Part shown: one piece after another, positions 1,652 to 62,179 of the stretch | Numbering within the stretch: the stretch's first letter is position 1 | How the letters are laid out: every line of letters begins with the position of its first letter | NCBI GenBank assembly: GCA_963712055.1 | Contig: CAVQGN010000002.1 | Span: forward strand, 134,784 to 198,783 | Direction of reading: 5' to 3' | Length of the DNA: 64,000 bases | From: an uncultured Chloroflexia bacterium | GTDB taxonomy: Bacteria > Chloroflexota > Chloroflexia > Thermomicrobiales > UBA6265 | The notes under the pieces: model-generated | Seen by the model: only the letters and a program-made list of their open reading frames with translations | Told to the model about the DNA's origin: nothing | Databases searched by the model: none | Made by a program: the position numbers and the translations under genes

Positions 1652-1658
1652 CACGTTG

Positions 1659-1750
1659 GTTGCCAGGGGTGCGTTTGGCGCTGAGAGTGTGGTCTTCGAT
1701 CACCAACCCTCCGAACCTGATCCGGTTCGTACCGGCGAAGGGACGGCAAC
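1659..1750 (+). promoter_or_regulatory. TPP (THI-box) riboswitch
   Basis: Sequence gttgcc-aGGGGUGCgtttggcGCUGAGAgtgtggtcttcgatcaccaACCCtccGAACCUGAUCCGGUUCGUACCGGCGAAGGGAc-ggcaac. P1 arms are gttgcc and ggcaac. The CUGAGA and ACCUGAUCYGG..AAGGGA cores are present, and it lies directly upstream of thiD. Confidence 0.92.
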
Positions 1751-1830
1751 AGTCAACAGCGCTGGCCAGACCCTCGCTCGTGGACGGAATTGTCCATGGC
1801 GGTTTGTTTTTTCGACTCAATGGTCGGCGA

Positions 1831-2682: not shown

Positions 2683-3473
2683 CCTCATCACTCGATACGC
2701 CTTTGGTCATCGCTGGCAAGACCTTTTCGAGTCGTCTCTTCCTCGGCACTGGCAAGTACCGATCGACTGACGAAATGCTGGCCGCGTTCGAAGCTGCCGA
2801 CACTGAGATGATCACCGTCGCGCTCCGTCGGATCGACTTCGACGATCCTAAGAGCCGGTCAGTGCTCGAGGACATTGACTGGAAACGCTACGCAATTCTG
2901 CCCAACACAGCTGGATGCCAAACGGCTGAGGAAGCGATTCGGGTTGCCCGACTCGCCCGCGCCCTCGAACTCTCGGATTGGATCAAACTCGAAGTCATCC
3001 CTGACCCGAAGTATCTCCTCCCCGATCCGATTGGGACCTTCGAAGCCGCCCGCGTCCTGATCGATGAAGGGTTCACCGTGCTCCCCTACATCGGCGCTGA
3101 CCCTGCGCTGGCTCTCCGTCTCCAGGAGATCGGCACCGCAACAGTCATGCCACTCGGTTCGCCAATCGGTTCAGGACAGGGTCTAGTCAGTATCGATTCG
3201 ATCAGAATCATCGTCGAGCAGGCGACCGTGCCGGTCGTCGTCGACGCCGGTATCGGTGTGCCTTCAGATGCCGCCCAGGCAATGGAAGCTGGCGCCGATG
3301 CGGTGCTCGCAAACACCGCGGTCGCGCTTTCGCCGAATCCCGCTTTAATGGCCGAAGCGATTGCTGACGGTGTTCGCGCTGGACGGAAGGCGTTTGTGGC
3401 TGGCAGGATTCCGCGAAAAGCCTACGCTACCGCCAGCAGTCCCGTCGAAGGTCTCGTCGGCTCCGTTTCCTGA
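2679..3473 (+). CDS. thiG: Thiazole synthase
   Basis: LFLGTGKY...ILPNTAGC.TAEEAIR.ARLA...WIKLEVIPD.KYLLPD...MPLGSPIGSGQG is a typical ThiG. Confidence 0.95.
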   Translation: MTSSLDTPLVIAGKTFSSRLFLGTGKYRSTDEMLAAFEAADTEMITVALRRIDFDDPKSRSVLEDIDWKRYAILPNTAGCQTAEEAIRVARLARALELSDWIKLEVIPDPKYLLPDPIGTFEAARVLIDEGFTVLPYIGADPALALRLQEIGTATVMPLGSPIGSGQGLVSIDSIRIIVEQATVPVVVDAGIGVPSDAAQAMEAGADAVLANTAVALSPNPALMAEAIADGVRAGRKAFVAGRIPRKAYATASSPVEGLVGSVS

Positions 3474-15677: not shown

Positions 15678-15813
15678 CGCGGCGGGTAGAATTGCCGGAA
15701 ACGACGCGGTGATTCTCGGCTTAAATGGTCCGAAGTCAGGCAATTCAGACCAGTGTGCCAACGCACGGTGCGGTTCATCTGCCACCGCCGAATCTGGAGG
15801 CTGTCACTCGAAC

Positions 15814-18189
15814 ATGGTCACTCGCGCAGAGATAAAAATGGTCACCGGCAAGATCAATGGAACCGATGTCACCGTTCCAGCCGGGACGTCTATCCTTGAA
15901 GCCGCCCGGCTTGCCAACATCGAAGTCCCGAATCTCTGTTATCAACCCAAACTGCGAGCCTGGGGTTCGTGTCGGATCTGCACCGTAGAAGTTCTCGGCA
16001 AACGCGGTGGCTTGATTGAATCGTGCGCTACGCCACTCGGCGAGGGTATGGAGGTCCTCACCCACTCAGAACCAGTTGAGGATGCGCGGCAGTTCGTTCT
16101 GCAAATGTATCTCGTCGATCATGCTCTCGATTGCCCGACTTGTGACAAATCCGGTGAGTGTTATCTCCAGGACAACACCTATCTCAGCAATGTCAACGCG
16201 AATCCCTATCGACGGCCGAAGTTCGCCAAACCCTATGTCCATTTCAGCGATCTGATCGATTTCAAGCACGACCGCTGCATTATGTGCACTCGCTGCACAC
16301 GCGTTTGCGACGAGATGATCGGCGTGACCGCGATCGAAGCGACTCATCGCAGTATCGAAGCCACGATTGCCCCGGCATTTGGTGAAACGCTCGCCGATAC
16401 ACTGTGCACCAATTGTGGTATGTGCATCGCTGTCTGCCCGGTCGGGGCGTTAACCGACCGCCATTTCGCGCACCATCCCTGGGAACTTGACACCACCGAA
16501 ACTATCTGCGGGATGTGCGACGTCGGTTGCACGCTCAACGTCGAAACCAATAAGGGTGTCGTTCGCCGCGTGACCAATCTCTGGGAACGAGGTGTGAATC
16601 AAGGCTATCTCTGCTATCACGGGAAATGGGGACACGAAGCGGTTCAGTCCCCCGATCGGATCCGCTATCCCAAGATCAACACGGAACGTGACTTCGCCTA
16701 CGAGGTCACGTGGGACGACGCGATCCAGACTATCGCCGACACCTTCAGGAACTACCAGGGTAACCAGTTTGCCGCTCTGATCAGCCCAGATGGCACCAAC
16801 GAAGAAGCGTATGTGGCACAGAAATTCGTCCGCATGGCGATGCAATCGAACAGCATCGATCGCAACCTGACGGCGTCGCAATCCGCCGTTGAAGCGGCAA
16901 CGCGTTCGACCATGAATCAGGACGTCTCGTCGACCAACAGCATGCAGGAACTGCAGTCGGATGTACGTTCGGCGCTCGTTGTCGGTCCGAACATCGGCGA
17001 ACACGCTCCGATTGCATCCTACTGGCTCTACCACTCCCGGATTTATCGCGACAGTAAGACCGTGGTCATATCCCAGGACGAGTTTCCATTGTGTTGGCGA
17101 GCCGAGGTCTGGCTGAAACCGCGACCGGGATCCACTGCGGCACTGGTCAATGGCATGGCCAAACTCATCCTGGATCATGGCTGGACAGGTGACGGTGGAA
17201 ACATCGCCGGACTCTCTGATTGGCGGGAGTCAGTCTCCGGCACGACGCTGGGCGATCTCGCCGAATTGACTGGTTGCTCTGCGGACGACATTCACCAAGC
17301 TTGTGTGATCTACGCCACCGGCGGCGCTGGGCTCGATGGCCAGGTCGAAGGTGTCTTCCCACCCTCAGTGATCTATCAGACGGCGGCTCACATCGATGAA
17401 ACCGACGAGAGTCGTGATGACCCGCTCGAAGTGGCAGCGGCCTGTAACCATCTCGCCGCGGTGACCGGCAATGTTGGTCGCGCTGGTGGTGGTGTCCTTG
17501 CTCCTCGCGGACCGGCGAACTACCAGGGCACGACCGACATGGGCGCTGTCCCCTATGGGCTTCCTGGCGGGTCGACTTATCGCGATGCGTCCGAGCGCTC
17601 CGTACTCGAATCCGCCTGGGGTGCGTCTCTTCCCGCTTCGGCTGGTTTTCCAGGTTCCCAGATGGCGACAGCTATTCGCACCGGACAGATCAAGGCGATG
17701 TATATCGAAGGCAACGTTGGCCCGCATTCGGCAACAATCAGCGATGACCTGCTCGATGCCCTGGAGCAACTCGACTTTCTCGTGGTCGCCGAAGCCTTCG
17801 ACACCCCGCTTGCGCAAGCCGCTCACGTTGTGCTCCCGCGAGCGCTATCTCTTGAAACCGATGGAACGCTCACGAATTTCGATCGAACCGTTCAGCGCGT
17901 TCGCGCGACCGTTCCGGCCGCTGGAGAATCTCGTTCTCCAGTCGAATTTCTCCCAGCCATCGCTTCGGCCATGGGTATTCCAATGAAGATCGCCAGTTCG
18001 GCAAGCGTCATGGCGGAAATCTCTCGAGTCATTCCGGACTACTCCGGGGTTAACTACGCTCGACTCGAACGTGAAGGCCTGACTGTTCCGGTCGCCAGTT
18101 TCGCGGATCCGGGAACGGAGATTCTCTCGCCGAACGGTTCCAATGGACGCGGGTTTTCCCTTTCGATGATCAACGCCGCCGCCGACTAA
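15814..18189 (+). CDS. nuoG: NADH-quinone oxidoreductase subunit G (Nqo3-like; 2Fe-2S, 4Fe-4S and a non-catalytic molybdopterin-oxidoreductase fold)
   Basis: INGTDVTVPAGTSILEAAR...NLCY.P.L...GSCRICTVEV...DCPTCDKSGEC.LQD...CI.C.RC.R.C, then ICGMCDVGCTLNV. There is no Cys/Sec at the FDH Mo-ligand position. The start is ATG 15814 (GGAGG 13 nt upstream) or ATG 15838 (MVTGKINGT). Confidence 0.85.
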   Translation: MVTRAEIKMVTGKINGTDVTVPAGTSILEAARLANIEVPNLCYQPKLRAWGSCRICTVEVLGKRGGLIESCATPLGEGMEVLTHSEPVEDARQFVLQMYLVDHALDCPTCDKSGECYLQDNTYLSNVNANPYRRPKFAKPYVHFSDLIDFKHDRCIMCTRCTRVCDEMIGVTAIEATHRSIEATIAPAFGETLADTLCTNCGMCIAVCPVGALTDRHFAHHPWELDTTETICGMCDVGCTLNVETNKGVVRRVTNLWERGVNQGYLCYHGKWGHEAVQSPDRIRYPKINTERDFAYEVTWDDAIQTIADTFRNYQGNQFAALISPDGTNEEAYVAQKFVRMAMQSNSIDRNLTASQSAVEAATRSTMNQDVSSTNSMQELQSDVRSALVVGPNIGEHAPIASYWLYHSRIYRDSKTVVISQDEFPLCWRAEVWLKPRPGSTAALVNGMAKLILDHGWTGDGGNIAGLSDWRESVSGTTLGDLAELTGCSADDIHQACVIYATGGAGLDGQVEGVFPPSVIYQTAAHIDETDESRDDPLEVAAACNHLAAVTGNVGRAGGGVLAPRGPANYQGTTDMGAVPYGLPGGSTYRDASERSVLESAWGASLPASAGFPGSQMATAIRTGQIKAMYIEGNVGPHSATISDDLLDALEQLDFLVVAEAFDTPLAQAAHVVLPRALSLETDGTLTNFDRTVQRVRATVPAAGESRSPVEFLPAIASAMGIPMKIASSASVMAEISRVIPDYSGVNYARLEREGLTVPVASFADPGTEILSPNGSNGRGFSLSMINAAAD

Positions 18190-18214: not shown

Positions 18215-18667
18215 ATGTTTGATGAAGTCAAAGGGTTCGGCGTCACGTTGCGGCGGATGTTTATGCCCAACCAGACGATCGAGTACCCGGAAGTCAAGCG
18301 GGAGATGGCACCACGGTTTCGCGGTCTCCCTTCACTGCGTTCAGATCCCGACACCGGTGAAGCCCTCTGCGTCGCGTGCGGCTTGTGCGCACGGATCTGC
18401 CCGACCACCTGTCTCGAGATGCATGTGATCCCGTCCGAAGAAGGCGACCGCGAACTCGGCGAGTTCATTCTTCGCGCCGGTCGCTGTATGTTTTGTGGTC
18501 TGTGCGCACAGGTCTGTCCTGTGGATGCCATCACTATGAGCTCGGAGTATGAGTTGTCGGTGATGGACCGCGATGGACTCGTCTATACGAAAACAGAACT
18601 CGCGCAGATCGGATCACAGGCGCCAATCTGGTGGGAAGCCGGCGCGGACGCACTGGTTCCGCGATAA
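18215..18667 (+). CDS. nuoI: NADH-quinone oxidoreductase subunit I (2x[4Fe-4S])
   Basis: TIEYPEVKREMAPRFRG...CVACGLCARICP...RCMFCGLCAQVCPVDAI. An AAGGAG SD is upstream. Confidence 0.9.
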   Translation: MFDEVKGFGVTLRRMFMPNQTIEYPEVKREMAPRFRGLPSLRSDPDTGEALCVACGLCARICPTTCLEMHVIPSEEGDRELGEFILRAGRCMFCGLCAQVCPVDAITMSSEYELSVMDRDGLVYTKTELAQIGSQAPIWWEAGADALVPR

Positions 18668-18773: not shown

Positions 18774-20216
18774 ATGACACAGTCCTACCCGATCTACCTG
18801 GCCGGTCAATGGGCACGATCTGATCGGGCGATGACGATCATCAATCCATACACCGGCGAACCCGTCGGCGAGACCTATCAGGCGACTGCGGAGCAGTACG
18901 ATCTGGCGGTCGAAAGTGCGGTAACTGTCTTTCCCGAACTGCGAGACATGCCCGTCTACGAACGCGTACGTCTTCTCGAGGCCTTGGCCACCCAGTTGCG
19001 CAACCGGCGCGACGAAGTCGCACGGATGATTACGCTCGAGTCAGGCAAGCCAATCCGCGACGCTGAAGTCGAAGCGGATCGGGGCGTTTTTACGGTCGAA
19101 ACGGCGGCTGAGGAAGCCAAGCGGATCGAAGGCGAGGTCATGCCGCTCGATCTCCTGCCCTCGTCTAAAGGACGCTTCGGGATCGTCCGACGCTTCCCGG
19201 TTGGCCCGGTCGCCGGGATCTCGCCGTTCAATTTCCCGCTCAATCTGGCTTTGCACAAGCTTGCGCCGGCGATGGCGGCCGGCTGCCCGATCGTGATCAA
19301 GCCACCATCCCGCGACCCATTGACCATGCTTCTCGTTGCCGAAATGCTCGACGAGATCGGAGTACCAGCTGGTTCGGTCAGCGTTCTCCCAATGGACCGG
19401 AAAACCGGCGACCGGATGGTCGAGGATGACCGCTTCAAGCTCCTGTCGTTCACTGGCTCGCCGGATGTCGGCTGGGATATGAAAGCGCGCGCCGGCCGCA
19501 AGCCTGTCGTGCTCGAACTCGGGGGCAACGCCGGGGTCATTGTCGACGAGGGTGCCGATCTCGCATTCGCCGCCCAACGCGTTCGGGTCGGCGCGTTCGC
19601 TTATGCCGGGCAGGTCTGTATCTCCGTCCAGCGCGTCTTTGTGCACGAAAAGGTCTATGACGAGTTCAGAGGACTTCTGGTCGCTGAAACAGCCAAAATG
19701 AAGCTCGGAGACCCATTGGATCGAGAAACCGATCTTGGGCCAATGATCGACGAAAAAGCCGCGACGCGCAGCCAGGGCTGGATCGCCGACGCGGTCGCTT
19801 CGGGTGCGACGGTGGTCACCGGCGGCAAAGCCGATGGGCGTTTCCTGGCACCGACGATCATCGAACACGCGCCGCTGGAGTCCTTTGTTTGTTCACGTGA
19901 GGCATTCGCACCGCTGGTAACGCTCTTCCCCGTGCCCGATTTCGGGTCGGCGGTGCGGGCCGTCAATGATTCGGTTTACGGCCTGCAGGCCGGTGTGTTC
20001 ACGAACTCACTCGAGCATGCGCTCTACGCTTTCGAAAATATCGAAGCCGGCGGAGTGATTCTGAACGACATCCCAACCTACCGGATCGACCACATGCCGT
20101 ACGGGGGCGTAAAGGATTCGGGATTGAGTCGTGAGGGCCTCAAATACGCCATCGAGGACATGACCGAAACCCGTCTGCTCGTGATCAACCGCCTGGAGAG
20201 CCAGCGCGTCCGCTAG
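18774..20216 (+). CDS. NAD(P)-dependent aldehyde dehydrogenase
   Basis: GISPFNFPLNLA.HK.APA.AAGC..V.KP......ELGGNAG.IV...GQVCISVQR (catalytic Cys and Glu motifs). Confidence 0.9.
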   Translation: MTQSYPIYLAGQWARSDRAMTIINPYTGEPVGETYQATAEQYDLAVESAVTVFPELRDMPVYERVRLLEALATQLRNRRDEVARMITLESGKPIRDAEVEADRGVFTVETAAEEAKRIEGEVMPLDLLPSSKGRFGIVRRFPVGPVAGISPFNFPLNLALHKLAPAMAAGCPIVIKPPSRDPLTMLLVAEMLDEIGVPAGSVSVLPMDRKTGDRMVEDDRFKLLSFTGSPDVGWDMKARAGRKPVVLELGGNAGVIVDEGADLAFAAQRVRVGAFAYAGQVCISVQRVFVHEKVYDEFRGLLVAETAKMKLGDPLDRETDLGPMIDEKAATRSQGWIADAVASGATVVTGGKADGRFLAPTIIEHAPLESFVCSREAFAPLVTLFPVPDFGSAVRAVNDSVYGLQAGVFTNSLEHALYAFENIEAGGVILNDIPTYRIDHMPYGGVKDSGLSREGLKYAIEDMTETRLLVINRLESQRVR

Positions 20217-21061
20217 TCGCGGAGCGCAATCAGGCGATCGAGGTTCATTCGGTCCTCGGTGTAGTCGTCATCCTTCGGGGTTTCGAGGATACCGGGGATA
20301 TCCTCGAGTCGTGGATCATTGACGAAGAACCCGAATGCCGCTTCTCCGATTTCGCCGTCACCAATATGGCTGTGGCGATCCCGGTGACTCCCGAACGGTT
20401 TCATCGAATCGTTGAGATGAACGACCTTGAGGTAGTCGAGACCAATCGTGTCATCGAACTGGCGCATAGTCGCATCGTAACTCTCTCCGTCGCGGATGTC
20501 GTAGCCGGCAGCGAAAACATGGCAGGTATCAAGGCAGACCGCGATCCGATTCTTGTCGTCGACTCCGTCGATCATCGCTGCGATTTCTTCGAATGTTCGG
20601 CCGAGTGTCGTGCCTTGACCGGCCGTGGTTTCGAGTGCGATCACCGCAGAACCAGCGGGCATTTCGGCATGAATCCGATTGATCGCTTCCGACACGCGCC
20701 GAATGCCTGCATCGACTCCGGACTCCATGTGGGCACCGGGATGTGACACGAGCAGTGGCACCGAAAGTGTGTCGCAGCGGTCGAGTTCGACTTTGAGCGC
20801 TTCCATAGACTTTTCCCAGGCGGTATCATCGGGCGATGCAATGTTAATGAGATAGGAGTCGTGGGCTACAACATCGCTGATGCCACTTTCTTCGAGCGCG
20901 AGGCGATACCGCTCAACGACTGCCGGGTCGAGCGGCTTGGCTTTCCACTGGTTGGCATTTTTGGTGAAGAGCTGAAAGGCACCCATATCCAGCGCTTTCG
21001 CTCGTCCAACGGCCGTATCGACGCCACCTGCCGTAGAAACATGTGATCCGAGTTTGCGCAC
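20213..21061 (-). CDS. nfo: Endonuclease IV (AP endonuclease, xylose isomerase-like TIM barrel)
   Basis: LGSHVSTAGG...AFQ.FTKN.NQW......AHDSYLINIASPD......SHPGAH....HLNDS. I moved the start to GTG 21061, which has an AGGAG SD 10 nt upstream. The longer ORF to 21145 would overlap the upstream gene. Confidence 0.9.
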   Translation of the reverse strand: MRKLGSHVSTAGGVDTAVGRAKALDMGAFQLFTKNANQWKAKPLDPAVVERYRLALEESGISDVVAHDSYLINIASPDDTAWEKSMEALKVELDRCDTLSVPLLVSHPGAHMESGVDAGIRRVSEAINRIHAEMPAGSAVIALETTAGQGTTLGRTFEEIAAMIDGVDDKNRIAVCLDTCHVFAAGYDIRDGESYDATMRQFDDTIGLDYLKVVHLNDSMKPFGSHRDRHSHIGDGEIGEAAFGFFVNDPRLEDIPGILETPKDDDYTEDRMNLDRLIALRD

Positions 21062-21068
21062 CGGTTTT

Positions 21069-21428
21069 CTACTCCTGCGAATCCGATTCAGCCATCGCGA
21101 TGAGCGCGTTCTTGTCGAAACCTGAAATGATCCCGTTCTTCCCAAGGACGAGCGGGCGTTTGATCAACGCTGGATGCTCCTGGATCAACGCGATCCACTC
21201 GGCTCGATTGATCTCGCGGGCTCCGAGACCAAGTTCGCGGTATGGGGTGCTTTTTGTCGATACGATGTCTTCAGCCCCCAACCCAAAACGGTCCAAGATA
21301 TCCCGGATCTCTTCGGTCGAAAGCGGTTCCTTGAAGAAGTCACGGTAGGTGAACTCGATCTCTTCGGAACGGAGGAACTCCTCCGTTTTTCGGCAAGTTG
21401 TTCAGGTTTTTCGGCAAAGGACTTCCAT
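21069..21428 (-). CDS. Spx/ArsC-family (PF03960-like) redox protein with in-frame TGA (21404..21402) at the first Cys of CxxC; candidate selenoprotein (alternatively a pseudogene)
   Basis: The ORF track gives only the 75-aa C-terminus (21069..21296). The frame stays open upstream: MEVLCRKT-TGA-TTCRKTEEFLRSEEIEFTYRDFFKEPLSTEEIRDILDRFG...IQEHPALIKRPLV. By eye this aligns with Spx ([46 protein letters not shown]...INEHPGLLRRPII). ATG 21428 has a GGAGA SD 5 nt upstream. Confidence 0.55.
21369..21386 (-). promoter_or_regulatory. SECIS-like stem-loop 15 nt downstream of the in-frame UGA
   Basis: On the minus strand: ACGGAGG-AGUU-CCUCCGU (7 bp, or 8 with flanking A-U). GU is in the apical loop. The UGA-to-loop distance is about 22 nt. 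Confidence 0.4.
21385..21417. repeat. 12-bp direct repeat (gtttttcggcaa x2) with 21-bp period flanking the in-frame TGA
   Basis: Copies lie at 21385-21396 and 21406-21417 (+ strand). On the coding strand each encodes CRKT, and the TGA lies between them. Confidence 0.8.
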
Positions 21429-21536
21429 CAATGTCTCCAGATCAGCGCAGAACATCGTGCTCCAGCCGCTATGCTAGCATTCGCGGTCGAGTCCAGGCTT
21501 TTCTGGTGTTGGCTGTTCGCATCGAGGACACACGGG

Positions 21537-22322
21537 TTGTTCACCATTCCCACATCGCAGCTAGCTGCGGCCCAGCCTTCCCAGACCGTCGTCATTCCTG
21601 CCTACAACGAAGAAGACCGCATCGCCGCGACTGTCACCTCGGTGGTGACTTTTCTGGAAGCGCAATCCTTCGAATGGGAAGTCATCGTGGTCGACGATGG
21701 CAGTACTGATGCCACGGCAAGCCGTGCCCGTGAAGCGATGCTGAACCACGACACCGTCCACGTTCTGACGGTTCCGCATGGTGGGAAAGCAGCGGCCGTG
21801 CGGACGGGTGTCGATGCGGCAGTCGGCGATCTCATCCTCTTCGCCGATGCCGATATGGCGACACCGATCGCCTACCTGTTGCCGTTCCGTGACGCCATCG
21901 CGGAGGGAGCCGACATCGCGATTGGTTCCCGTGAAGGAAACGGCGCGTCGCGCATCGGGGAACCGTCGTTTCGTCACGCCATGGGGCGGGTGTTTAACGG
22001 ACTGGTTCGTGTCTCACTGTTGCCAGGTATTCAGGACACCCAGTGCGGGTTCAAACTCTTCACCAGGGAATCAGCGACCGATATCTTCGCTTCCACGGTT
22101 CGCCACCAACCAGAACAGCGGGAAATCAACGGACCGCGGGTCACTGCGTTCGATGTTGAATTGCTCCTGATCGCGAAACGTCACGGCTATCGTGTTGTGA
22201 CACTACCGGTGACTTGGACCTTCGGCGAACAAAGCAAAGTCAACCCGATTGCCGACACGATCACCAACGCGTCTGACCTCGTCGCGATCAAATGGAACGA
22301 CTTGCGCGGTCGCTATGACTGA
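21537..22322 (+). CDS. Family-2 glycosyltransferase (polyprenyl-phosphate glycosyltransferase-like)
   Basis: VVIPAYNEEDRI...VIVVDDGSTD.T...FADADMATP...QCGFKLF. ORF 21174..22322 is clearly over-extended, being antisense to the Spx-like gene. I prefer TTG 21537, which has a GAGGA SD 8 nt upstream. ATG 21471 is the alternative. Confidence 0.85.
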   Translation: MFTIPTSQLAAAQPSQTVVIPAYNEEDRIAATVTSVVTFLEAQSFEWEVIVVDDGSTDATASRAREAMLNHDTVHVLTVPHGGKAAAVRTGVDAAVGDLILFADADMATPIAYLLPFRDAIAEGADIAIGSREGNGASRIGEPSFRHAMGRVFNGLVRVSLLPGIQDTQCGFKLFTRESATDIFASTVRHQPEQREINGPRVTAFDVELLLIAKRHGYRVVTLPVTWTFGEQSKVNPIADTITNASDLVAIKWNDLRGRYD

Positions 22323-22394
22323 ACCGAGCCTTCGTCTCGTCGTTGATGTACGTATACTATGTCCGTACGTTTGTATCGCTGACAGGTTTTTTCG

Positions 22395-23102
22395 ATGACC
22401 ATCCGCATTCTCATCGTCGATGAACACTCACTGTATCGCAAAGGTGTGGCCGTCAGCTGCGCCAGTGAGCGCGATCTCACGATCGTCGGTGAAGCAGAAA
22501 ACGGCGATCACGCATTGGCGCTGTCCGACACCTACCTCCCCGATGTGATCCTTGTCGACGCCGACTTGGGAGGAGATGCCGGGATCGAGCTCACACGCAA
22601 TCTCAAACGACGTCATCCCCAGACCGGGGTGCTTGTGCTTTCGGCTCGTTTCGACGACGAGCAGCTCTTCCAGGCGATCCGCGCCGGCGCCGCCGCGTAC
22701 GTCGCCAAGGATATCGATGCGGCCGGTTTGGCTGATCTGATTCGTCGAGTCGCTCGCGGCGATTATGTCATCAACGAAAGCGTGCTCTCGCGTCCCCACG
22801 TCGCGTCTCGAGTGCTGAATCAGTTTCGCGAGATTTCTGAACTGGACGAATCGACGGACGGCGTGTTTTCGCCTTTGACGCCGCGGGAAATCGAGATTCT
22901 CGATCGCGTTGCGCAGGGAAACAGTAACAAGGAAATCGCCTACGGTCTCGGCATCTCGGACCAGACTGTCAAAAACCACATCACGTCGATTCTGCGGAAA
23001 CTCGCAGTCAACGACCGCACCCAGGCGGTGATCTACGCGCTTAGACAGGGGTGGATCAAGCTCGAGGACTATGGCGAGCCTGATCAACGCTCCAGACGCT
23101 GA
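22395..23102 (+). CDS. NarL/FixJ (LuxR-type HTH) response regulator
   Basis: A receiver domain (RILIVDEH...DVILVDADL...VLVLSA) plus LTPREIEILDRVAQGNSNKEIAYGLGISDQTVKNHITSILRKL. Confidence 0.9.
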   Translation: MTIRILIVDEHSLYRKGVAVSCASERDLTIVGEAENGDHALALSDTYLPDVILVDADLGGDAGIELTRNLKRRHPQTGVLVLSARFDDEQLFQAIRAGAAAYVAKDIDAAGLADLIRRVARGDYVINESVLSRPHVASRVLNQFREISELDESTDGVFSPLTPREIEILDRVAQGNSNKEIAYGLGISDQTVKNHITSILRKLAVNDRTQAVIYALRQGWIKLEDYGEPDQRSRR

Positions 23103-23106
23103 CGCT

Positions 23107-24822
23107 CTACTTCCGGGAAAACTGCTTTTCCAGTTCGAGTTGGGTCAAACTGAGCATGGTTGGACGACCATGTCCGCACGCACGCGGATGCTCGGTTGAC
23201 TCGAGCTGTTCGACCAGCTCCCGCATCTCGGTCAGACTGAGGGCTTGGCCAGCGCGGATCGAGGTGTGACAGGCCACCGAAATCGCGACCGAATCGAGCC
23301 ACGAATCTCCGACACCACCATCGGCAAGCTCTGCCAGAATCAATCCGAGGCGCTCGGCAATGTCGACGCCCACGGCATTGGTCGGGATCGCTCGCACCAG
23401 CACTGCTTGATCGCCGAATGGCTCAACATCGAATCCGAGTTCACGCAATTCCTCGACTGATCGATCGAGAACTGCTCGCTGTTCCGGTGGCAGTTCGATC
23501 ACGATTGGATCGAGCATCGGTTGCGAATCGGCTGATTTTCCGGCGAGATGAGCGAGATAGCGCTCATAGACGATACGTTCATGAGCCGCGTGCTGGTCGA
23601 TCAGATAGAGCCCCTCCGGACCCTCCGCGATAATGTATGTCGCCGCCACCTGTCCCAGCACCCGCAACGCCGGCAACGACCGTGTCCGGATGATCGCAGC
23701 TGACTTATCTGGCTCGCTGCCTCGGACAGGTTCACCCCAGGTCGTGCTTGGCAGTGGCTCGGTCGAATGGACTATCTGCGGTGCGCCCCCGCCGAAAGAA
23801 ATCTGCGGAATTGGTGGACTCGGCATGCTCGAAAGCGTCGCATGAGCCGCTCTCGACACCACACGCGTCACCTGGCGCTCGTCCGCGAACTTGACTTCGG
23901 CTTTGGTGGGATGAACATTGATATCGACCAGCGCCGGATCGATATCGATCCGGATCATCGCCAGGGGATGCCGACCGACCATCAGAAGTGAGTGATAGGC
24001 ATCCTCGAGCGCATAGGACAACGGTCGGTTCTGCACCTGCCGCCCGTTGACAAAGAAAAGCATGTGCTGCCGAGTGGCCCGACTCACCGCGGGAGCCGTC
24101 AACCAGCCGCTGACCGCCACTGCAGCACCGGGAACCGGCAGATCGCTTTCGACGAGCGGCAACACGGCGTTGCCGATTTCGCTCCCATGCAAGGCGACTA
24201 CAGAATCGATCAGTTCACCGTTCCCGCTAGTAGCCATCACTTTGCGCCCATCGATGATCAATTGAAACGCGATACCCGGATAGGCTAGCGCATACGATTC
24301 GACCACTCTGACGATCGCGGAGGTTTCGGTCGAAGGCTGCTTCAGAAACTTCCGCCGCGCCGGCACATTCCCAAAGAGATCGGTCACTGAAACCGTGGTA
24401 CCGAAATCGGTGCCCGTTCGCTCTGGTCTCCCGAGAGCGCCGTAATCGCAAACGAGCCGGATTCCGGCGGCATCGCTCGACTGACGCGACGTGATCGTCA
24501 CGTGCGCAACGGCGCCAATACTCGGCAAGGCTTCTCCCCGGAACCCGAGGGTGCCGAGATGGTCGAGATCCTCGAACAGCGTCAATTTCGAGGTGGCATG
24601 GCGCTCGAAAGCCAGCGGAATTTCGTCCGATGACATCCCGGCGCCATTGTCGTTGACCTCCAGCTGCGCTAAACCGCCGCCACCAACGCTGATCCGGATC
24701 CGGGTGGCGCCGGCGTCGATCGCATTTTCGACCAGTTCCTTCGCGACTGACGCTGGTCGCTCGACGACCTCGCCGGCGCATATCTTGCCGATGGTCCGTT
24801 CGTCCAGAAGTCGGATCGTCAT
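23107..24822 (-). CDS. mutL: DNA mismatch repair endonuclease MutL
   Basis: IAAGEVVERPASV.KELVENAIDAG-type N-terminus, DQHAAHERI.YE, and C-terminal ACH.S.RAG and CGHGRPT motifs. Confidence 0.95.
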   Translation of the reverse strand: MTIRLLDERTIGKICAGEVVERPASVAKELVENAIDAGATRIRISVGGGGLAQLEVNDNGAGMSSDEIPLAFERHATSKLTLFEDLDHLGTLGFRGEALPSIGAVAHVTITSRQSSDAAGIRLVCDYGALGRPERTGTDFGTTVSVTDLFGNVPARRKFLKQPSTETSAIVRVVESYALAYPGIAFQLIIDGRKVMATSGNGELIDSVVALHGSEIGNAVLPLVESDLPVPGAAVAVSGWLTAPAVSRATRQHMLFFVNGRQVQNRPLSYALEDAYHSLLMVGRHPLAMIRIDIDPALVDINVHPTKAEVKFADERQVTRVVSRAAHATLSSMPSPPIPQISFGGGAPQIVHSTEPLPSTTWGEPVRGSEPDKSAAIIRTRSLPALRVLGQVAATYIIAEGPEGLYLIDQHAAHERIVYERYLAHLAGKSADSQPMLDPIVIELPPEQRAVLDRSVEELRELGFDVEPFGDQAVLVRAIPTNAVGVDIAERLGLILAELADGGVGDSWLDSVAISVACHTSIRAGQALSLTEMRELVEQLESTEHPRACGHGRPTMLSLTQLELEKQFSRK

Positions 24823-41480: not shown

Positions 41481-43475
41481 ATGACAGCCGCCGAAACACC
41501 GCTCAGTCTCCGTGAGGTTGCGAGTGACCTGCGTCACCGCCTGGCTCAGTCAGCGAATCACGATCTGAACGATGATGCCTCCTTGCACCAGCAACTTCGC
41601 GACGAGTTTCATGAGTTCGGCGTCGCCGCCCGACTAGCAGGCGCGGATCTGGAGGAGTCAATGGCGATCGCGGTCGCCATTCTCCAGGAGACCCTCGACG
41701 ATTCACCGGCTTTCCCTCATGTTGTGCCAACAACCATCGTCGCTGGTTCCGTGTTCGCCGCCGTAGCACACGGCTTTCAATTCGGCAGGGTGCAAGGCGA
41801 GGCTCCAGTAAGCAATGGATCGCTCGATAGTCGCCTCGCCCAACTGACCGCGCTGCACCAGATTGGACGCGCCGCCACTGGGAGTTCGAGTCCCGGAGAC
41901 CTACTCGATCTGGCCGTGCGCGCAATTGGATCAGCCACCGAGAGCGATGCGGCGGCAGTGTTTCTTTTCGATCCCGCCAGCGAACGCTTGGCGCTTTGGG
42001 CCGCGACCGGGCTGAATCCGGCGTCAATTGGCGCCCTCGCGATTCCGCTGAGTGAAGGCCTGACCGGGCTCGCGGCGAGTGAACGGCGGCCGGTCGTCGT
42101 CGAGGATGCTCAACGCCATCCGGCTTGGGTGACTTCGCACAATTTCGGTGACACGGTCTATGCGTCGCAAGCTTCGATACCGATGATCCTTGAATCGCAG
42201 GACAAACTCGTCGGAGTGCTCAACGTGCTCACGGTAAATCGGCGCTCGTTCAGCAGCGAAGAGATCGATTTCCTTCAGACCGCGGCAAACGAACTCGCGA
42301 TTAGTGTCGAGTTTGCGCGCCTTCACGATCAAACCGATGAACGCTTGCGCCAGAAAATCGCCGAACTTGGAACACTCCAGCGCGTTTCTCGATCGGTCGC
42401 GTCATCGCTGGCCGTTTCGGATGTTCTGCGCTTGGTAGCAGCGTCGGCGACTGAAATTTGCCAAGCGGAAGCCACCGCTCTCTTTCGCCTTCATCGCCGG
42501 GAAACGGGCGGACAGATCGAGGAACGGCCGATTGTGGAGCACCGTATCGGCCAGGCCCGGCAGGCAACGGATGTCGTAATTCGCGACGATTTCGTCCGTT
42601 CGGTCATCGAATCCGGTTCCGCCAGTACGATGAACCTTGATTATGTCGACGGTTCAAGTCGGCTCTATTGCATCCCGCTCCGCTCGGCCCGCGAAATCTG
42701 GGGCGCTCTGTGCGTGCGTTTGCCATCAGGAAATACGTTGTCGGAAGATCAGCTGGGATTGCTGCAGTCCTTCACCGATTCTGCTTCGATCGCAATCGAG
42801 AATGCCGAACTCTTCGAGCATGCGCAGGCAAACGCGGCGATTTCCGCCACCCTGCTGCAGGAAATGCATCACCGGGTCCGGAACAACCTGCAAACCGTGG
42901 CTGCGCTCTTGTCACTGCAAATGCGGCAAGTCGACGACGAAGAAACCAGTCGACACTTGATGGAGGCCGCTGGTCGGGTCCAATCGATCGCAGCCGTCCA
43001 CGATCTGCTGAGCGATGAGAGTCGGTTGAGTGGTGCGTCGATAGCCGATGTCGCGAACCTTGTGGTCGATGAAACAAGAAACACCGTCCACAAACCGGGT
43101 CTCGCCGTCACATTCGATGTCGTGCCCAATGACCTGGTGGTTCCATCGAGGCATGCCACCATCCTGGCGCTATTGATCAACGAATTGATCTCGAACGCGA
43201 TCAGTCATGGTTTCAGGGATCGGGAAAAGGGTTCGATCACGATCGCTGCCACACGGGAGGGCTCAAACATCTGCCTTGTGGTCGAAAATGATGGTGAGCA
43301 GGTGCCGACTGGCTTCAACCCGTCGATGAGTTCTGGTCTGGGTTTGCGAATCGTCGAACGGCTCGCGCAATTCGATCTTGGTGGCACCTTCAAGGTTATC
43401 GCGACGGGCAGCGGTACACGCGCGGAAATCAGATTCCCATCGACCGCAATTGCCGAGATCGAGGCGGGAACTTAG
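41481..43475 (+). CDS. GAF-domain sensor histidine kinase (HisKA_2-type H-box plus HATPase_c)
   Basis: Two GAF-like regions, an H-box EMHHRVRNNLQTVAALLSLQ, NELISNAISHG and SGLGLRIV. Confidence 0.85.
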   Translation: MTAAETPLSLREVASDLRHRLAQSANHDLNDDASLHQQLRDEFHEFGVAARLAGADLEESMAIAVAILQETLDDSPAFPHVVPTTIVAGSVFAAVAHGFQFGRVQGEAPVSNGSLDSRLAQLTALHQIGRAATGSSSPGDLLDLAVRAIGSATESDAAAVFLFDPASERLALWAATGLNPASIGALAIPLSEGLTGLAASERRPVVVEDAQRHPAWVTSHNFGDTVYASQASIPMILESQDKLVGVLNVLTVNRRSFSSEEIDFLQTAANELAISVEFARLHDQTDERLRQKIAELGTLQRVSRSVASSLAVSDVLRLVAASATEICQAEATALFRLHRRETGGQIEERPIVEHRIGQARQATDVVIRDDFVRSVIESGSASTMNLDYVDGSSRLYCIPLRSAREIWGALCVRLPSGNTLSEDQLGLLQSFTDSASIAIENAELFEHAQANAAISATLLQEMHHRVRNNLQTVAALLSLQMRQVDDEETSRHLMEAAGRVQSIAAVHDLLSDESRLSGASIADVANLVVDETRNTVHKPGLAVTFDVVPNDLVVPSRHATILALLINELISNAISHGFRDREKGSITIAATREGSNICLVVENDGEQVPTGFNPSMSSGLGLRIVERLAQFDLGGTFKVIATGSGTRAEIRFPSTAIAEIEAGT

Positions 43476-44798
43476 TCCCCCACGCGGTCGATTGACCGAT
43501 TTGCATAGGCCTCCGCCATCAGATCGGCAAGGTGGGTCACCGGAATCGGTGTTTCGTTCCGGTCGAGCGCGCTCGTAACCTGGATCGCGCACCCCGGGTT
43601 CGCGGTGACGACGACTGCGGCAGCTGTCTCGGCTGCGTTCCCAGCTTTGCGATCACCAAGCTCCCTTGCCATTTTTGGTCGAAGGAGGTTGTAGATTCCG
43701 GCACTGCCACAGCAGAGCGAAGACTCGCGCATTTCGACAAGTTCGAGTCCAGGAATCGATCGCATAAGCCTGCGTGGTTCCTCAGATATGCGCTGAGCAT
43801 GAACGAGGTGACAAGGTTCCTGGTAGGTCACTCGTTTCTTCAACGGTCCAGGCTCGACTACGAGGTTGGCAGCCATGATTTCGGTGAAATCGCAGACGCG
43901 ATCTGAAAACGCTCGTGCTCGCTCGGCGTAGGTCGGATCGTCCTTGAGGAGATGACCGTATTCTTTGAGCGTCGATCCGCATCCAGCAGCCGTCACGACA
44001 ATCGGATTCGAATCAGTCGCCTCGAAGGCGTCGATGTTCTTTCGGGCGAGTTCACGCGCTTCGCTTGCCATGCCGCTGTGGACCAGCAATGCACCGCAGC
44101 ATCCCTGCGATTTCGGAACTTCGACAGCGATGCCATTGATTGCCATCACTGACGCCGCTGAGCGATTGGTGGTTGGAAAGACGGTTCCCATCATGCAGCC
44201 ATTGAAGAGGTCAGCGGATAGTCGCGGCTCGACCGGCGTCCAGGACTCCTCACCCGGGATCAATCTTGCTCCAACCGCTGCCGGCGCCAGTTTTTCTGCG
44301 TCCGCCATACCGATCCGGTCGAGCAATCCACTTCTACGTGCCAGCGATTGCAAACCAGAATCGCTGGTACAGGGTGGTCGCCCGTGCGACGAGCGAGATT
44401 CGGCGGACGTCGCCGAAGAGCCAGTCAAGCATGACCTTTCTGATCGCCCGCTCGGGAACTGACCGTTCGATGTGCTGCTCGATCTGGCTGCGACTCGATT
44501 CGACCAAAATACCGTACTGGACTCCGGAAGGACACACCGCCTCGCAGGCGCGGCAATCGAGGCACTCGTACATTTGATCTTTGAAGACCGGGTCATCGAT
44601 CGACATCCGGCCTTCGCCGACTGCGCTCATCAACCAGAGCCGTCCGCGCGGTGAGGAGATTTCCTGTCCGGTAATCCGATAGGTGGGACAGGAGGAGAGA
44701 CACATACCGCAGTGGACACAAGCCCGCAGAAGATCCTCCTCCGGGACATCGTATCCAGCGAATCCGCGTATGACTCCGTTTTGGGTTGCGTTCTGCAC
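43472..44798 (-). pseudogene. glcF: Glycolate oxidase Fe-S subunit GlcF, interrupted by a 1-nt frameshift near 44359-44360
   Basis: The N-terminal part is ORF 44334..44798 (CVHCGMCLSSCP, CLDCRACEAVCP). The C-terminal CCG domains are in ORF 43472..44596 (CCGA, CCGSAG), in the +1 frame. Deleting one T from cgaTTctgg restores ...TTLYQRSGLQSLARRSGLL.... Confidence 0.8.
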
Positions 44799-61372: not shown

Positions 61373-62179
61373 ATGACCGGAACTCGCCCCGTGAGATCAT
61401 TTCGCCCTTTCCGCAAACTCGAGACTTCGCTCGAAGCCTTGGTCGAAAAACCCCTCAATCGCGTGTTTCGGACGTCGATCCAGCCAGTGGAAATCGCCCG
61501 GCAGCTCGAAAAAGAGATGCTTGATCGTCGGCTGGTTGGGCCAAACGGAACGATGGTACCAAACCGGTATCTGGTGCTGATCAGCACCGCTGATATGAGT
61601 GGATACGCCGATTCGGTCGATTCTGTGATCGAGGAACTCGAGGCATCGTTGTCCGAGTTTGCCGCCGGGAAGCGACTAGTCTCCAATGGAGACCTTTTCG
61701 TAACGTTTTCAGCCACCGACGAAAAGGCGCCAGGTTTTCTGCAGATAGAATCACGCTTTGATCGGGACGAGGCCGTCCGTATTCCGGCCCGACCTGAGCC
61801 AGTTTTAGATCAGACCCAACGCTTCTCTATCTACCAGGGCGGTGGTCCGGATGGAGATCTCGCGTTGAAAGTACTCGAAGGACCGATGGAAGGCATCTCG
61901 TTTTCCTTGACGAAACGCAAGACGAGCATTGGCCGATCGATCGACGGTGACATTGTCTTGCAATCACCGGATGTCTCGCGGAATCACGCGATCATCGAGT
62001 ACGTCGACGGAGTGATTCGGGTGATCGATCTGGGCAGCCTGAATGGCACCTGGGTCAACGGCCGCCAGGTTCACGATTGGGCCATGGTCAGACCTGGCGA
62101 TATCATTCAGTTCGGCGAAGTCAGGGCCTCAATCGATCTCGGGTATGCCGCCTACCGGCCGCCGTGGTCGGTCACTTGA
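61373..62179 (+). CDS. FhaA-like protein (DUF3662-type N-domain plus C-terminal FHA domain)
   Basis: FRKLETSLEALVEKPLNRVFRTSIQPVEIARQLEKEM... is followed by the FHA core TSIGRS.DGDIVL....VSRNHA.I......V.DLGSLNGT.VNG. The alternative start is GTG 61391. Confidence 0.85.
   Translation: MTGTRPVRSFRPFRKLETSLEALVEKPLNRVFRTSIQPVEIARQLEKEMLDRRLVGPNGTMVPNRYLVLISTADMSGYADSVDSVIEELEASLSEFAAGKRLVSNGDLFVTFSATDEKAPGFLQIESRFDRDEAVRIPARPEPVLDQTQRFSIYQGGGPDGDLALKVLEGPMEGISFSLTKRKTSIGRSIDGDIVLQSPDVSRNHAIIEYVDGVIRVIDLGSLNGTWVNGRQVHDWAMVRPGDIIQFGEVRASIDLGYAAYRPPWSVT

Follow-up and report, generated by a model that had tools for sequence, protein, structure and literature searches.

An in-frame TGA in an nfo-linked gene of the ArsC/Spx family points to a divergent selenoprotein in a Chloroflexota lineage

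A small redox-protein gene that gene finders skip for its internal TGA is very probably a real selenoprotein gene. It lies on the minus strand of the window, the 64,000-nucleotide stretch of Chloroflexota DNA that was analysed as a whole. The preferred reading, to which we assign a probability of roughly 0.8, is that of an intact 119-residue thioredoxin-fold gene of the ArsC/Spx family, in which the first residue of the CxxC motif would be selenocysteine (U9-T-T-C12). A UxxC selenoprotein of this family had been proposed in an earlier note on the same DNA. The proposal now draws support from a TGA in the same column of about 19 relatives, from a covarying helix confined to the TGA-type genes and from a hairpin that satisfies the constraints on bacterial SECIS elements.

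The gene and its reading frame

The gene and its immediate signals are the following.

21069..21428, minus strand: candidate coding sequence of an ArsC/Spx-family selenoprotein, 119 sense codons including one UGA, plus a TAG stop (translation, PF03960, TIGR01617, gapless alignment to the Spx structures 3gfk and 1z3e)
21434..21438, minus strand: Shine-Dalgarno-like GGAGA, 5 nt upstream of the ATG at 21428..21426 (direct reading)
21402..21404, minus strand: in-frame TGA, the proposed Sec codon, residue 9, in the first-Cys column of CxxC
21393..21395, minus strand: TGC codon of Cys12, the second UxxC residue and presumed selenenylsulfide partner

The minus strand from 21428 to 21069 translates as MEVLCRKT*TTCRKTEEF...SQE*, with a single internal TGA at 21404..21402, and the active site of the product reads U9-T-T-C12. 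Every coordinate of the earlier description, namely an uninterrupted frame with one TGA, an ATG at 21428 and GGAGA 5 nt upstream, was reproduced from the sequence. The same is true of the statement that an ORF track reports only a C-terminal fragment of 75 aa: the mechanical ORF list holds nothing at this locus except that TTG-initiated piece (21069..21296). No gene is called here in two public assemblies, and the relatives are represented only by 5'-truncated ORFs of 91-105 aa. Apart from the TGA, the gene is free of lesions across its 119 codons, and both the Shine-Dalgarno sequence and the ATG are intact.

A global reassignment of TGA was ruled out, as TGA is the commonest normal stop in the window and ends 22 of its 40 genes. 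The plus-strand ORF 21174..22322 was considered as the true gene in place of the minus-strand frame and was rejected. Its GT2 domain starts only at residue 138 and its relatives match from about residue 130, which places the true GT2 start close to 21471 or beyond it and makes the overlap an artefact of the open frame.

Family assignment and the TGA column

With U read as C, the predicted protein matches PF03960 (Pfam ArsC) at 7e-18, with 65.2 bits for a cut-off of 24, and TIGR01617 (Spx/MgsR subfamily) with 90.9 bits for a cut-off of 75.05. Both scores lie above the curated cut-offs and place the protein in the ArsC/Spx superfamily. HMMER aligned residues 7-107 without a gap to residues 8-108 of B. 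subtilis Spx (3gfk, E 5e-18), and the kinship along the whole 119-aa product, which had been seen by eye, is borne out. In this alignment the TGA falls on Spx Cys10 and C12 on Spx Cys13. In E. coli ArsC, aligned without gaps, the residue opposite the TGA is the catalytic Cys12, and in full-length homologues it is the first C of C[ST][ST]C, so the position of the TGA exactly on the first redox Cys, as first claimed, is correct.

An alignment of homologues had been named in advance as a check on this position. It has either Cys or TGA in the column: the TGA recurs in about 19 distinct homologues from public assemblies, and about 12 others have Cys. All six truncated database homologues that were looked up have the TGA in that column, and about 13 metagenome loci add to them. 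A start codon lies 6-21 codons upstream of the TGA at each of the 17 TGA-type loci checked, and 8-14 codons upstream at 14 of these. The same UGA is thus found in independent homologues, with conserved residues before it and coding conservation on both sides, and it alternates with Cys as in the Sec/Cys pairs of selenoprotein genes. A close pair of this kind is YVHPT-TGA-TSCKK (locus L013) and YVHPTCTSCRK (locus L012). The full-length protein, used as query in a word-indexed search for homologues, gave no match, and the sole match in a scan of genome contigs was a distant Marinicaulis ArsC-family gene.

The recurrence of the codon bears on the possibility that the window gene is a pseudogene or a truncated gene, in which a TGC or TGT Cys codon has become TGA, translation stops after 8 residues and the TTG at 21296 yields a 75-residue fragment at most. 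One third-position change (TGY to TGA) would be enough to bring this about. Such decay is nevertheless unlikely. A nonsense codon shared in one column by about 19 distinct, divergent homologues cannot have arisen by independent decay, and the absence of a second lesion in the 119 codons and the intact start signals argue against it as well. The 75-residue fragment, as judged from the Spx alignment, would be without strand beta1, the active site and helix alpha1.

The N-terminus of the window protein departs from the family pattern. The residues before the TGA are L-C-R-K-T, where the nearest clade has the pattern Y-[VI]-H-P-T, and the departure coincides with a 12-nt exact direct repeat that brackets the TGA and is unique to the window gene.

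21406..21417, minus strand: upstream copy of the repeat TTGCCGAAAAAC, encoding C5-R-K-T
21385..21396, minus strand: downstream copy of the repeat TTGCCGAAAAAC, encoding C12-R-K-T

The last 3 nt of the downstream copy form the start of the 5' arm of the hairpin described below. Together, the repeat and the atypical residues hint at a recent local rearrangement; an N-terminus of this kind is also what may be said in favour of a pseudogene.

The SECIS-like hairpin

One hairpin follows the UGA at the appropriate distance.

21368..21387, minus strand: SECIS-like hairpin AACGGAGG-AGUU-CCUCCGUU, 8 bp with a 4-nt loop and GU at loop positions 2-3

Its core, ACGGAGG-AGUU-CCUCCGU, extends to 8 bp as AACGGAGG/CCUCCGUU. 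From the UGA it is 14 nt to the stem and 22 nt to the loop; the energy is -12.0 kcal/mol. The bacterial SECIS model, as given in excerpts of PMC13188914, has a loop of 3-9 nt with a G among its first two nucleotides, a stem of 4-16 bp, a distance of 16-37 nt from the UGA and an MFE of -7.5 kcal/mol or lower. The window hairpin falls within all four constraints as excerpted, in agreement with the earlier view that its geometry, with GU in a loop about 22 nt after the UGA, is that of a SECIS element.

Perfect hairpins of at least 8 bp number 28 in 128 kb (both strands), which gives the permitted interval of 22 nt a p of about 0.005. The window has 2195 TGA trinucleotides, of which 5.2% pass a simplified filter for bacterial SECIS elements and 0.36% do so at -12 kcal/mol or better. 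The whole-segment fold of the hairpin region has a z-score of only about -2, and folding energy alone is therefore weak evidence; across the homologues, whole-segment folding energies were non-significant for most.

The TGA-type genes (n = 20 sequences) have a helix between positions +16..+23 and +27..+34 after the UGA, in which 75% of the cells are paired, compared with 60% in shuffles and 38-57% in slid positions. Both sides have changed in 29 cells, and the covariation, 0.444 versus 0.214, was reached by none of 500 shuffles. The same helix in 11 Cys-type genes is 41% paired, which is the background level. With the hairpin restricted in position, the median energy is -7.65 kcal/mol in the TGA-type genes and -2.0 kcal/mol in the Cys-type genes (Mann-Whitney p = 1e-4, uncorrected for phylogeny), and the energy of the best hairpin anywhere does not separate the two types (p = 0.2). 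The loop of the covarying helix lies about 22-24 nt after the UGA. The window helix is one nucleotide off the family consensus register, in a register common only to locus L003.

A covariance-model search, also named in advance as a check, upheld the site in part. A family model built without the window ranked the window site first, with 21.3 bits and an E-value of about 5e-4, and aligned it without gaps; since the helix of the window is out of register by one nucleotide, this match comes mainly from the primary sequence. Rfam, where bacterial SECIS elements are poorly covered, gave no match to a SECIS family at either gathering or permissive thresholds.

In a pseudogene, neither a covarying helix specific to the TGA-type genes nor a strong, correctly spaced hairpin would have a role. 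The argument made at the outset, that a TGA landing on a redox Cys ahead of a hairpin is not random decay, is reinforced by the TGA-only helix and by the divergent homologues that share the codon.

The nfo locus

The ArsC-like gene is followed closely by nfo.

20213..21061, minus strand: nfo (endonuclease IV, AP_endonuc_2), with a GTG start 7 nt after the TAG of the ArsC-like gene; probable operon partner

The nfo product is 100% identical to a homologue of 282 aa (P0151). The ArsC-like/nfo pair is conserved in 13 distinct loci, both TGA- and Cys-type, and the order GT2 (divergent), ArsC-like gene, nfo is kept at loci of the two types alike. The 7-nt gap and the conservation of the pair support the suggestion of the earlier note that the two genes are probably co-transcribed. 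Linkage to nfo is absent from the other TGA-type clade recovered (motif FYTWPR-U-STCRK). In one syntenic relative (L048) the ArsC-like gene is missing altogether, a loss that favours a pseudogene. In the closest relatives (L047 and L049, with Nfo 84-85% identical) the contigs start inside the ArsC-like gene and are without the TGA region. A consensus scan for promoters and terminators found no promoter-like site and two terminator-like matches, no more than in shuffles. Elsewhere in the window, glcF is apparently broken by a 1-nt frameshift.

Selection and reliability of the sequence

A relative with an 84%-identical Nfo retains the C-terminal 80 codons of the ArsC-like gene, with 36 synonymous-only versus 20 non-synonymous codon differences (dN 0.15). 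By this codon comparison, the C-terminal two-thirds of the predicted protein is shown to be under purifying selection. The measurement covers mostly codons downstream of the TTG at 21296 and to that extent is compatible with a truncated gene; the presence of another apparently broken gene, glcF, in the window points the same way.

A sequencing or assembly error, with TGC or TGT as the true codon and an ordinary CxxC protein as the product, is highly improbable. The contig is public in a second version (ENA ERZ25039603 contig_15591), which has the TGA and is identical over the whole gene; elsewhere, 14 substitutions and 1 indel in 3.5 kb (0.4%) set it apart from the window. An error would be in keeping with the substitutions and the indel between the two versions, with the 1-nt frameshift in glcF, with the Cys-type orthologues at the same locus in relatives and with the source name contig_15591, which we take to be in the style of a long-read assembler. 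It would, however, leave a correctly spaced, SECIS-compliant 8-bp hairpin unexplained. As weak evidence against error, no gene is called in ENA L046 and in a short Logan contig (run ERR12037369), where an intact 119-aa ORF would be expected.

Sec machinery and the identity of the inserted residue

None of selA, selB, selD and tRNA-Sec was found within the 64 kb by a tRNA scan and a Pfam search of 39 ORFs, and no Sec machinery was found in the flanks of related loci (the tRNA scan covered the window and 33 loci). The window was also scanned for TGA-interrupted genes with a redox motif and a SECIS-like hairpin, and no further selenoprotein gene was detected: among 10 candidates only that at 21404 is credible. 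The candidates at 31976 and 42871 were examined and judged not credible.

The search for the machinery covered the window and the flanks of related loci, a span too small to be informative for a whole genome, and it leaves some room for a pseudogene. It leaves room as well for a hairpin that directs recoding of the UGA to a non-Sec residue, for example Cys, or for low-level near-cognate read-through. Systems that insert Cys in this way, with a SelB-like factor and a tRNA(Cys) resembling tRNA(Sec), have been described in some anaerobes. Non-Sec recoding is nonetheless very unlikely. Sec/Cys interchange in a thioredoxin-fold motif combined with a bacterial SECIS is the standard selenoprotein signature (excerpts of PMC9312934 and PMC13188914), and catalogues of selenoproteins already include ArsC-like proteins with UxxC (PMC2398784, PMC9312934 and PMC13188914, in the excerpted text).

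Relation to known families

The predicted product is a new, divergent member of the known UxxC ArsC/Spx-like selenoproteins, which were catalogued in 2006-2008. One form of these is listed under cd03032, presumably the Spx-subfamily model of CDD. Two genomes, those of Desulfotalea psychrophila and Desulfuromonas acetoxidans, were reported in 2006 to encode 'ArsC-like' selenoproteins (excerpts of PMC1794560); the earlier statement that such proteins were known only from metagenome surveys was thus mistaken. 'Arsenate reductase 2', a UxxC protein assigned to cd03032, came from marine metagenomes (Zhang and Gladyshev 2008, PMC2398784, in excerpt). As the UxxC cd03032 form was tabulated in 2008, the novelty of the window gene is lower than first estimated. 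The window protein shares with the 2006 and 2008 proteins the superfamily PF03960 and a UxxC with Sec for the first Cys, and, like them, it has been identified by sequence only. It shares with the cd03032 selenoproteins the Spx-like branch, in which it is placed by TIGR01617 and by Spx being its best PDB match. It differs in that its identity to the representatives in a library of 1.84 billion proteins does not exceed about 41% and in that it belongs to an nfo-linked lineage, of which the excerpted selenoproteome literature (PMC1794560, PMC2398784, PMC9312934 and PMC13188914) makes no mention.

The UxxC 'arsenate reductase-like protein' of a 2026 review is the NF041106 family (PMC13188914, in excerpt). 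The window protein resembles this 'ArsC family (seleno)protein' (ArsC_rel_Se_1) in the ArsC fold, the UxxC and the length of about 107-120 aa. It scores, however, only 25.4 bits with the model, for a cut-off of 85, and six other TGA-type homologues score 24.6-42 bits. Scores so far below the cut-off indicate that the nfo-linked clade is distinct from the curated selenoprotein family and that pipelines relying on the model would miss it.

Spx of B. subtilis, a regulator with a CxxC redox switch, binds RNA polymerase at the alpha C-terminal domain. It is the best solved-structure match of the window protein (PDB 1Z3E, 3GFK, 6GHB and 7F75; E 5e-18, gapless over 101 residues). U9 and C12 fall on Spx C10 and C13, a Gly occupies the position of Spx Gly52, and the motifs EPLS..EI, ST[RK]S and [RK]RP are common to the two proteins. 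The models of Spx proper were nevertheless failed (NF002459, 77.6 versus 123; NF009210, 55.8 versus 159; NF009885, 52.3 versus 152). Unlike Spx, the window protein is without the C-terminal tail of about 15 residues (119 versus 131 aa), and the Gly52 column is variable in its clade, with R, K or S in other members. Judged by the models, the tail and the Gly52 column, the protein would fall outside Spx proper, the RNA-polymerase-binding regulator. Spx proper belongs to Firmicutes, whereas the names carried by Nfo homologues suggest that the window host is probably a Thermomicrobiales-like member of Chloroflexota.

ArsC of E. coli plasmid R773 (PDB 1I9D) has the same fold, with U9 of the window protein on its catalytic Cys12 and R91 on its Arg94. 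In contrast to that enzyme, the window protein has Ser57 in place of Arg60, is unaligned in the Arg107 region and has UxxC rather than CxxS. The model of the glutaredoxin-coupled arsenate reductases, TIGR00014, gives 57 bits for a cut-off of 106.05. With this score, the loss of Arg60 and Arg107 and the UxxC, arsenate reduction is unlikely, and an arsenate reductase function was rejected on the TIGR00014 score, the Arg60 to Ser replacement and the unaligned Arg107.

Proposed mechanism and function

In the selenoprotein reading, translation would begin at the ATG at 21428. At the UGA (21404..21402), the hairpin, with its loop 22 nt downstream, would recruit SelB carrying Sec-tRNA(Sec), and insertion of Sec would replace termination. 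The product would be a redox protein of the selenol/thiol kind, cycling by way of a selenenylsulfide bond between U9 and C12, and may be either a small oxidoreductase or a redox switch. The ArsC-like protein and endonuclease IV would be made from one transcript, which suggests a role in the response to oxidative damage.

A more specific and improbable idea is that the protein is a functional analogue of Spx, a Sec redox switch that would bind RNA polymerase and control an oxidative-damage regulon including nfo in this Chloroflexota lineage. It would then, to our knowledge, be the first transcription regulator among the selenoproteins, and Sec/Cys interchange among the orthologues would tune the sensitivity of the switch.

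The result is the correction of an annotation and not the discovery of a new class of system: the curated NCBIfam model of ArsC-like selenoproteins misses the gene. The analysis also yields a SECIS alignment specific to the family, in which the loop sits at +24 from the UGA. If the Sec reading is true, this probably Thermomicrobiales-like lineage would decode Sec, and the nfo-linked Spx/ArsC-like clade, whose orthologues switch between Sec and Cys, offers material for asking what Sec buys in a CxxC centre.

The reading frame and its TGA codon

The ArsC-like gene is on the minus strand of the window and is interrupted by a single TGA. The features of the locus are as follows.

21428 (ATG) to 21069 (TAG), minus strand: ArsC-like frame, translated as MEVLCRKT*TTCRKTEEFLRSEEIEFTYRDFFKEPLS...IKRPLVLG...SQE*
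21404..21402, minus strand: TGA, the sole internal stop of the frame, seen in sequence and translation
21387..21368, minus strand: perfect hairpin AACGGAGG-AGUU-CCUCCGUU, with the stem from 14 nt and the loop from 22 nt after the UGA
21385-21396 and 21406-21417, minus strand: 12-nt exact direct repeat TTGCCGAAAAAC, copies 21 nt apart with the TGA between them

The frame and its single stop are as the earlier note had described them, and so is the Shine-Dalgarno sequence, GGAGA, 5 nt upstream of ATG 21428. The mechanical ORF list indeed contains only a 75-aa TTG-initiated tail at this locus (21069..21296). The plus-strand ORF 21174..22322 was considered as a rival gene and rejected. Its glycosyltransferase domain only starts at residue 138, about where the matches of relatives also begin, so that the true, divergent glycosyltransferase gene (GT2) starts near or after 21471 and the overlap with the ArsC-like region presents no rival.

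The TGA encodes selenocysteine (Sec, U) with a probability of roughly 0.8. Reassignment of TGA is ruled out, since it terminates 22 of the 40 confidently identified genes of the window. A second public version of the contig (L046; ENA ERZ25039603 contig_15591, 102104-105952) is 99.6% identical to window positions 19640-23200, with 14 substitutions and one indel (near 21494) in 3.5 kb. The segment 21069..21428 is identical throughout while the versions differ elsewhere, and this speaks against miscalling of the TGA. The differences suggest that a long-read assembly exists in two consensus or polishing versions, or that two strains are represented; Aldh is called as 422 aa in L046 instead of 480 aa.

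The TGA column among homologues

The product was compared exhaustively, without profiles, with 1.84 billion representative proteins; 872 homologues came up, the best only about 40% identical. Full-length homologues have C[ST][ST]C at the aligned position, and many others, of 90-105 aa, start after the motif. In all six 5'-truncated representatives whose DNA was fetched, TGA is in frame exactly at the first-Cys column of CxxC, with a start codon and a short conserved N-terminal stretch ahead of it.

L001: MDVYIHPT-TGA-TSCRR
L003: MELYVHPT-TGA-SSCRR
L002: LVLYQKPT-TGA-TSCVR
L005: IEIYVHPT-TGA-SSCQK
L008: VLYLYRS-TGA-TSCRN
L011: VKVYLRAT-TGA-STCRS

A metagenome scan added 34 loci: 14 (about 13 distinct) with TGA in the column (TGA-type), 13 with a CxxC (Cys-type) and seven more distant ArsC-family genes without the motif. 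Close Sec/Cys pairs exist, for example L013 and L012. The start codon is 6-21 codons upstream of the TGA in all 17 TGA-type loci checked, and 8-14 codons upstream in 14 of them. The alignment proposed in the earlier note shows both Cys and TGA in the column, TGA never falling off it in the six truncated homologues. Sec/Cys pairing is the classical signature for defining selenoprotein families (PMC9312934), and the distribution among the ArsC-like homologues matches it.

The main rival explanation, decay or truncation of the ArsC-like gene, is improbable. No selA, selB, selD or tRNA-Sec gene was found in the 64-kb window or in the fetched flanks of related loci, and no second selenoprotein gene is evident within the window. 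The frame itself is intact and carries the Sec/Cys column. Comparison with a relative whose Nfo is 84% identical, and which retains the C-terminal 80 codons (its contig begins inside the gene, downstream of the TGA region), gave 36 synonymous-only and 20 non-synonymous codon differences, with dN 0.15 and dS saturated, pointing to purifying selection on these codons.

The hairpin downstream of the TGA

The GC-rich hairpin reported in the earlier note, with its perfect stem, was recovered, and its geometry does fit a bacterial SECIS (selenocysteine insertion sequence). The published model, as given in PMC13188914, allows 3-9 nt in the loop and 4-16 bp in the stem, puts the element 16-37 nt from the UGA at an MFE of -7.5 or lower, and calls for G at loop position 1 or 2, in most cases with G or U next. 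The window hairpin falls within all four constraints (4 nt, 8 bp, AGUU, 22 nt, -12.0 kcal/mol). A simplified SECIS filter was passed by 5.2% of the 2195 TGA trinucleotides in the window, and by 0.36% when a hairpin of at least equal stability was required; perfect hairpins with stems of 8 bp or more number 28 in 128 kb.

Whole-segment folding energy gave no discrimination in this GC-rich coding sequence, and taking the best hairpin at any position gave TGA-type genes no advantage in strength over Cys-type ones (p = 0.2). Of the 20 TGA-type sequences, 18 have an apical loop that begins 20-24 nt past the UGA and contains G at +24 (loops GUU, AGUU, AGUUG, GGC, GUA, GUC and others), whereas the best hairpins of Cys-type genes are scattered from +11 to +46. 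To test for a position-specific helix, the 20 TGA-type sequences were aligned without gaps over 57 columns, and 11 Cys-type genes were examined afterwards. Helix cells are paired in 75% of cases in the TGA-type (shuffled 60%, slid 38-57%) and in 41%, equal to background, in the Cys-type. Cells changed on both sides number 29 against 11 in shuffled TGA-type alignments, and 5 against 3.6 for the Cys-type. The covariation score is 0.444 against 0.214 shuffled (0 of 500 shuffles reach 0.444) and 0.093 against 0.070, respectively. The median position-restricted hairpin energy is -7.65 kcal/mol for TGA-type versus -2.0 kcal/mol for Cys-type genes (Mann-Whitney p = 1e-4, uncorrected for relatedness). 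The helix is specific to TGA-bearing genes.

The register of the window hairpin, with its 4-nt loop, is off by one nucleotide from the TGA-type helix, and L003 is the only other sequence in this register (CCAGC-AGUU-GCUGG). With the window left out of its training set, a covariance model puts the site at the top (21.3 bits, E ~5e-4) but aligns it by sequence and not by pairs because of the shift.

The copies of the 12-nt repeat encode C5-R-K-T and C12-R-K-T. No other direct repeat of 12 nt or longer has its copies within 40 nt of each other in the 64 kb, the pattern has no further copy, and the repeat is absent from the 19 other aligned TGA-type sequences. It coincides with a departure of the N-terminus, L-C-R-K-T in the window and Y-[VI]-H-P-T or similar in relatives, and may reflect local copying of a short stretch over the end of strand beta1.

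Protein family

For profile and structure comparisons the TGA was read as Cys. Pfam ArsC recognises the product (PF03960, 7e-18), which also scores above the curated threshold of the NCBIfam model for the Spx/MgsR subfamily, TIGR01617 (90.9 vs 75.05 bits). It does not reach the models of Spx proper (NF002459, 77.6 vs 123; NF009210, 55.8 vs 159), arsenate reductase (TIGR00014, 57 vs 106) or the curated 'ArsC family (seleno)protein' (NF041106, 25.4 vs 85). The best solved-structure matches are B. subtilis Spx entries (3gfk, 1z3e, 6ghb, 7f75; E ~5e-18).

The family alignment that had been made by eye is borne out: the alignment with Spx is gapless over residues 7-107, the TGA falling on Spx Cys10 and C12 on Cys13. 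Gly occupies the Spx Gly52 position, but this column varies (R, K, S) in the clade of the window protein, which lacks the Spx C-terminal tail. A role as an Spx-like regulator binding RNA polymerase seems doubtful. In the comparison with E. coli R773 ArsC, the catalytic Cys12 is matched by the TGA and Arg94 by R91. Ser stands in place of Arg60 and the region of Arg107 is unaligned, which makes arsenate reduction unlikely.

Linkage to nfo and gene order

The endonuclease IV gene, nfo, starts at GTG 21061, 7 nt past the TAG of the ArsC-like gene. The pair is also present in 13 distinct loci of relatives (17 fetched), TGA or Cys alike, so the nfo-linked genes are orthologues in which Sec and Cys interchange. 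This operon-like linkage agrees with the co-transcription suggested in the earlier note. The linkage is absent from the other recovered TGA-type clade (FYTWPR-U-STCRK and similar). The locus runs from the divergent GT2 through the ArsC-like gene and nfo to convergent Aldh, Fer4 and NuoG-like genes, some loci holding only part. The last two correspond in the window to a small ORF (18215-18667, plus strand), at the place of a small ferredoxin-like (Fer4) gene in relatives, and a NuoG/formate-dehydrogenase-like protein of 826 aa (15709-18189, plus strand) with 2Fe-2S, 4Fe-4S and molybdopterin domains; both belong to the conserved order.

In L048 (GCA_964461025.1, CAYWSE010000002.1; Nfo 72% identical) the order MutL, response regulator, GT2, nfo, Aldh, Fer4, NuoG-like is the same, and the ArsC-like gene is absent, only 219 nt separating GT2 from nfo (positions 2783-3000). 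The gene is thus dispensable or has been lost in that lineage. Two contigs of one sample from the closest relative found (L047 and L049, Logan ERR11523668, positions 1-250; Nfo 84-85% identical) both begin at the same point, near codon 40 of the ArsC-like gene. That both break at one point suggests strain variation or faulty assembly just upstream, at the TGA/hairpin region.

Nfo homologues 66-68% identical carry Thermomicrobiales MAG names. An FhaA-like gene (FhaA_N + FHA; 61373-62179, plus strand) is followed by a second small FHA gene, an arrangement typical of cell-division/kinase clusters of Actinomycetota and Chloroflexota and consistent with these names. Both observations make Chloroflexota the probable affiliation of the organism.

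Other features of the window

A TPP riboswitch (Rfam RF00059, 68 bits; 1655-1761, plus strand) precedes a thiamine operon of thiD-like, thiG, one unassigned ORF and a thiE-thiS fusion. For the first ORF the listed start, GTG at 1633, falls ahead of the riboswitch, which means that translation must really begin beyond 1761. A glcF-like Fe-S subunit gene, flanked by glcD-like and glcE-like genes, is split (43472-44798, minus strand; junction near 44355-44362), with the N-terminal Fer4 in ORF 44334-44798 and two CCG domains in ORF 43472-44596, in another frame. Removal of one A from 'CAG CGA TTC TGG' would restore the usual GlcF junction, LYQR-SGLQSLARRSGLL. The split reflects a true frameshift or else an indel error of long-read sequencing.

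Probable function and known relatives

SelB with Sec-tRNA(Sec) would bind the hairpin and insert Sec at codon 9. The product would be a thioredoxin-fold oxidoreductase or redox switch acting through a U9-C12 selenenylsulfide couple, and co-expression with endonuclease IV may place it in oxidative-damage defence.

The statement in the earlier note that ArsC-like Sec proteins are known only from metagenome surveys is incorrect. They were reported from Desulfotalea psychrophila and Desulfuromonas acetoxidans as early as 2006 (PMC1794560), as 'Arsenate reductase 2, cd03032, UxxC' with 42 Sec and 238 Cys sequences in a 2008 ocean survey (PMC2398784), and as UxxS (TIGR00014) and UxxC (NF041106) forms in reviews of 2022 and 2026 (PMC9312934, PMC13188914). 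The window gene thus adds a rather divergent member, not a new kind, and it belongs to an nfo-linked clade beyond the reach of the curated NF041106 model. While no surprise to a selenoprotein specialist, it provides a solid correction of the annotation and a comparative SECIS data set.
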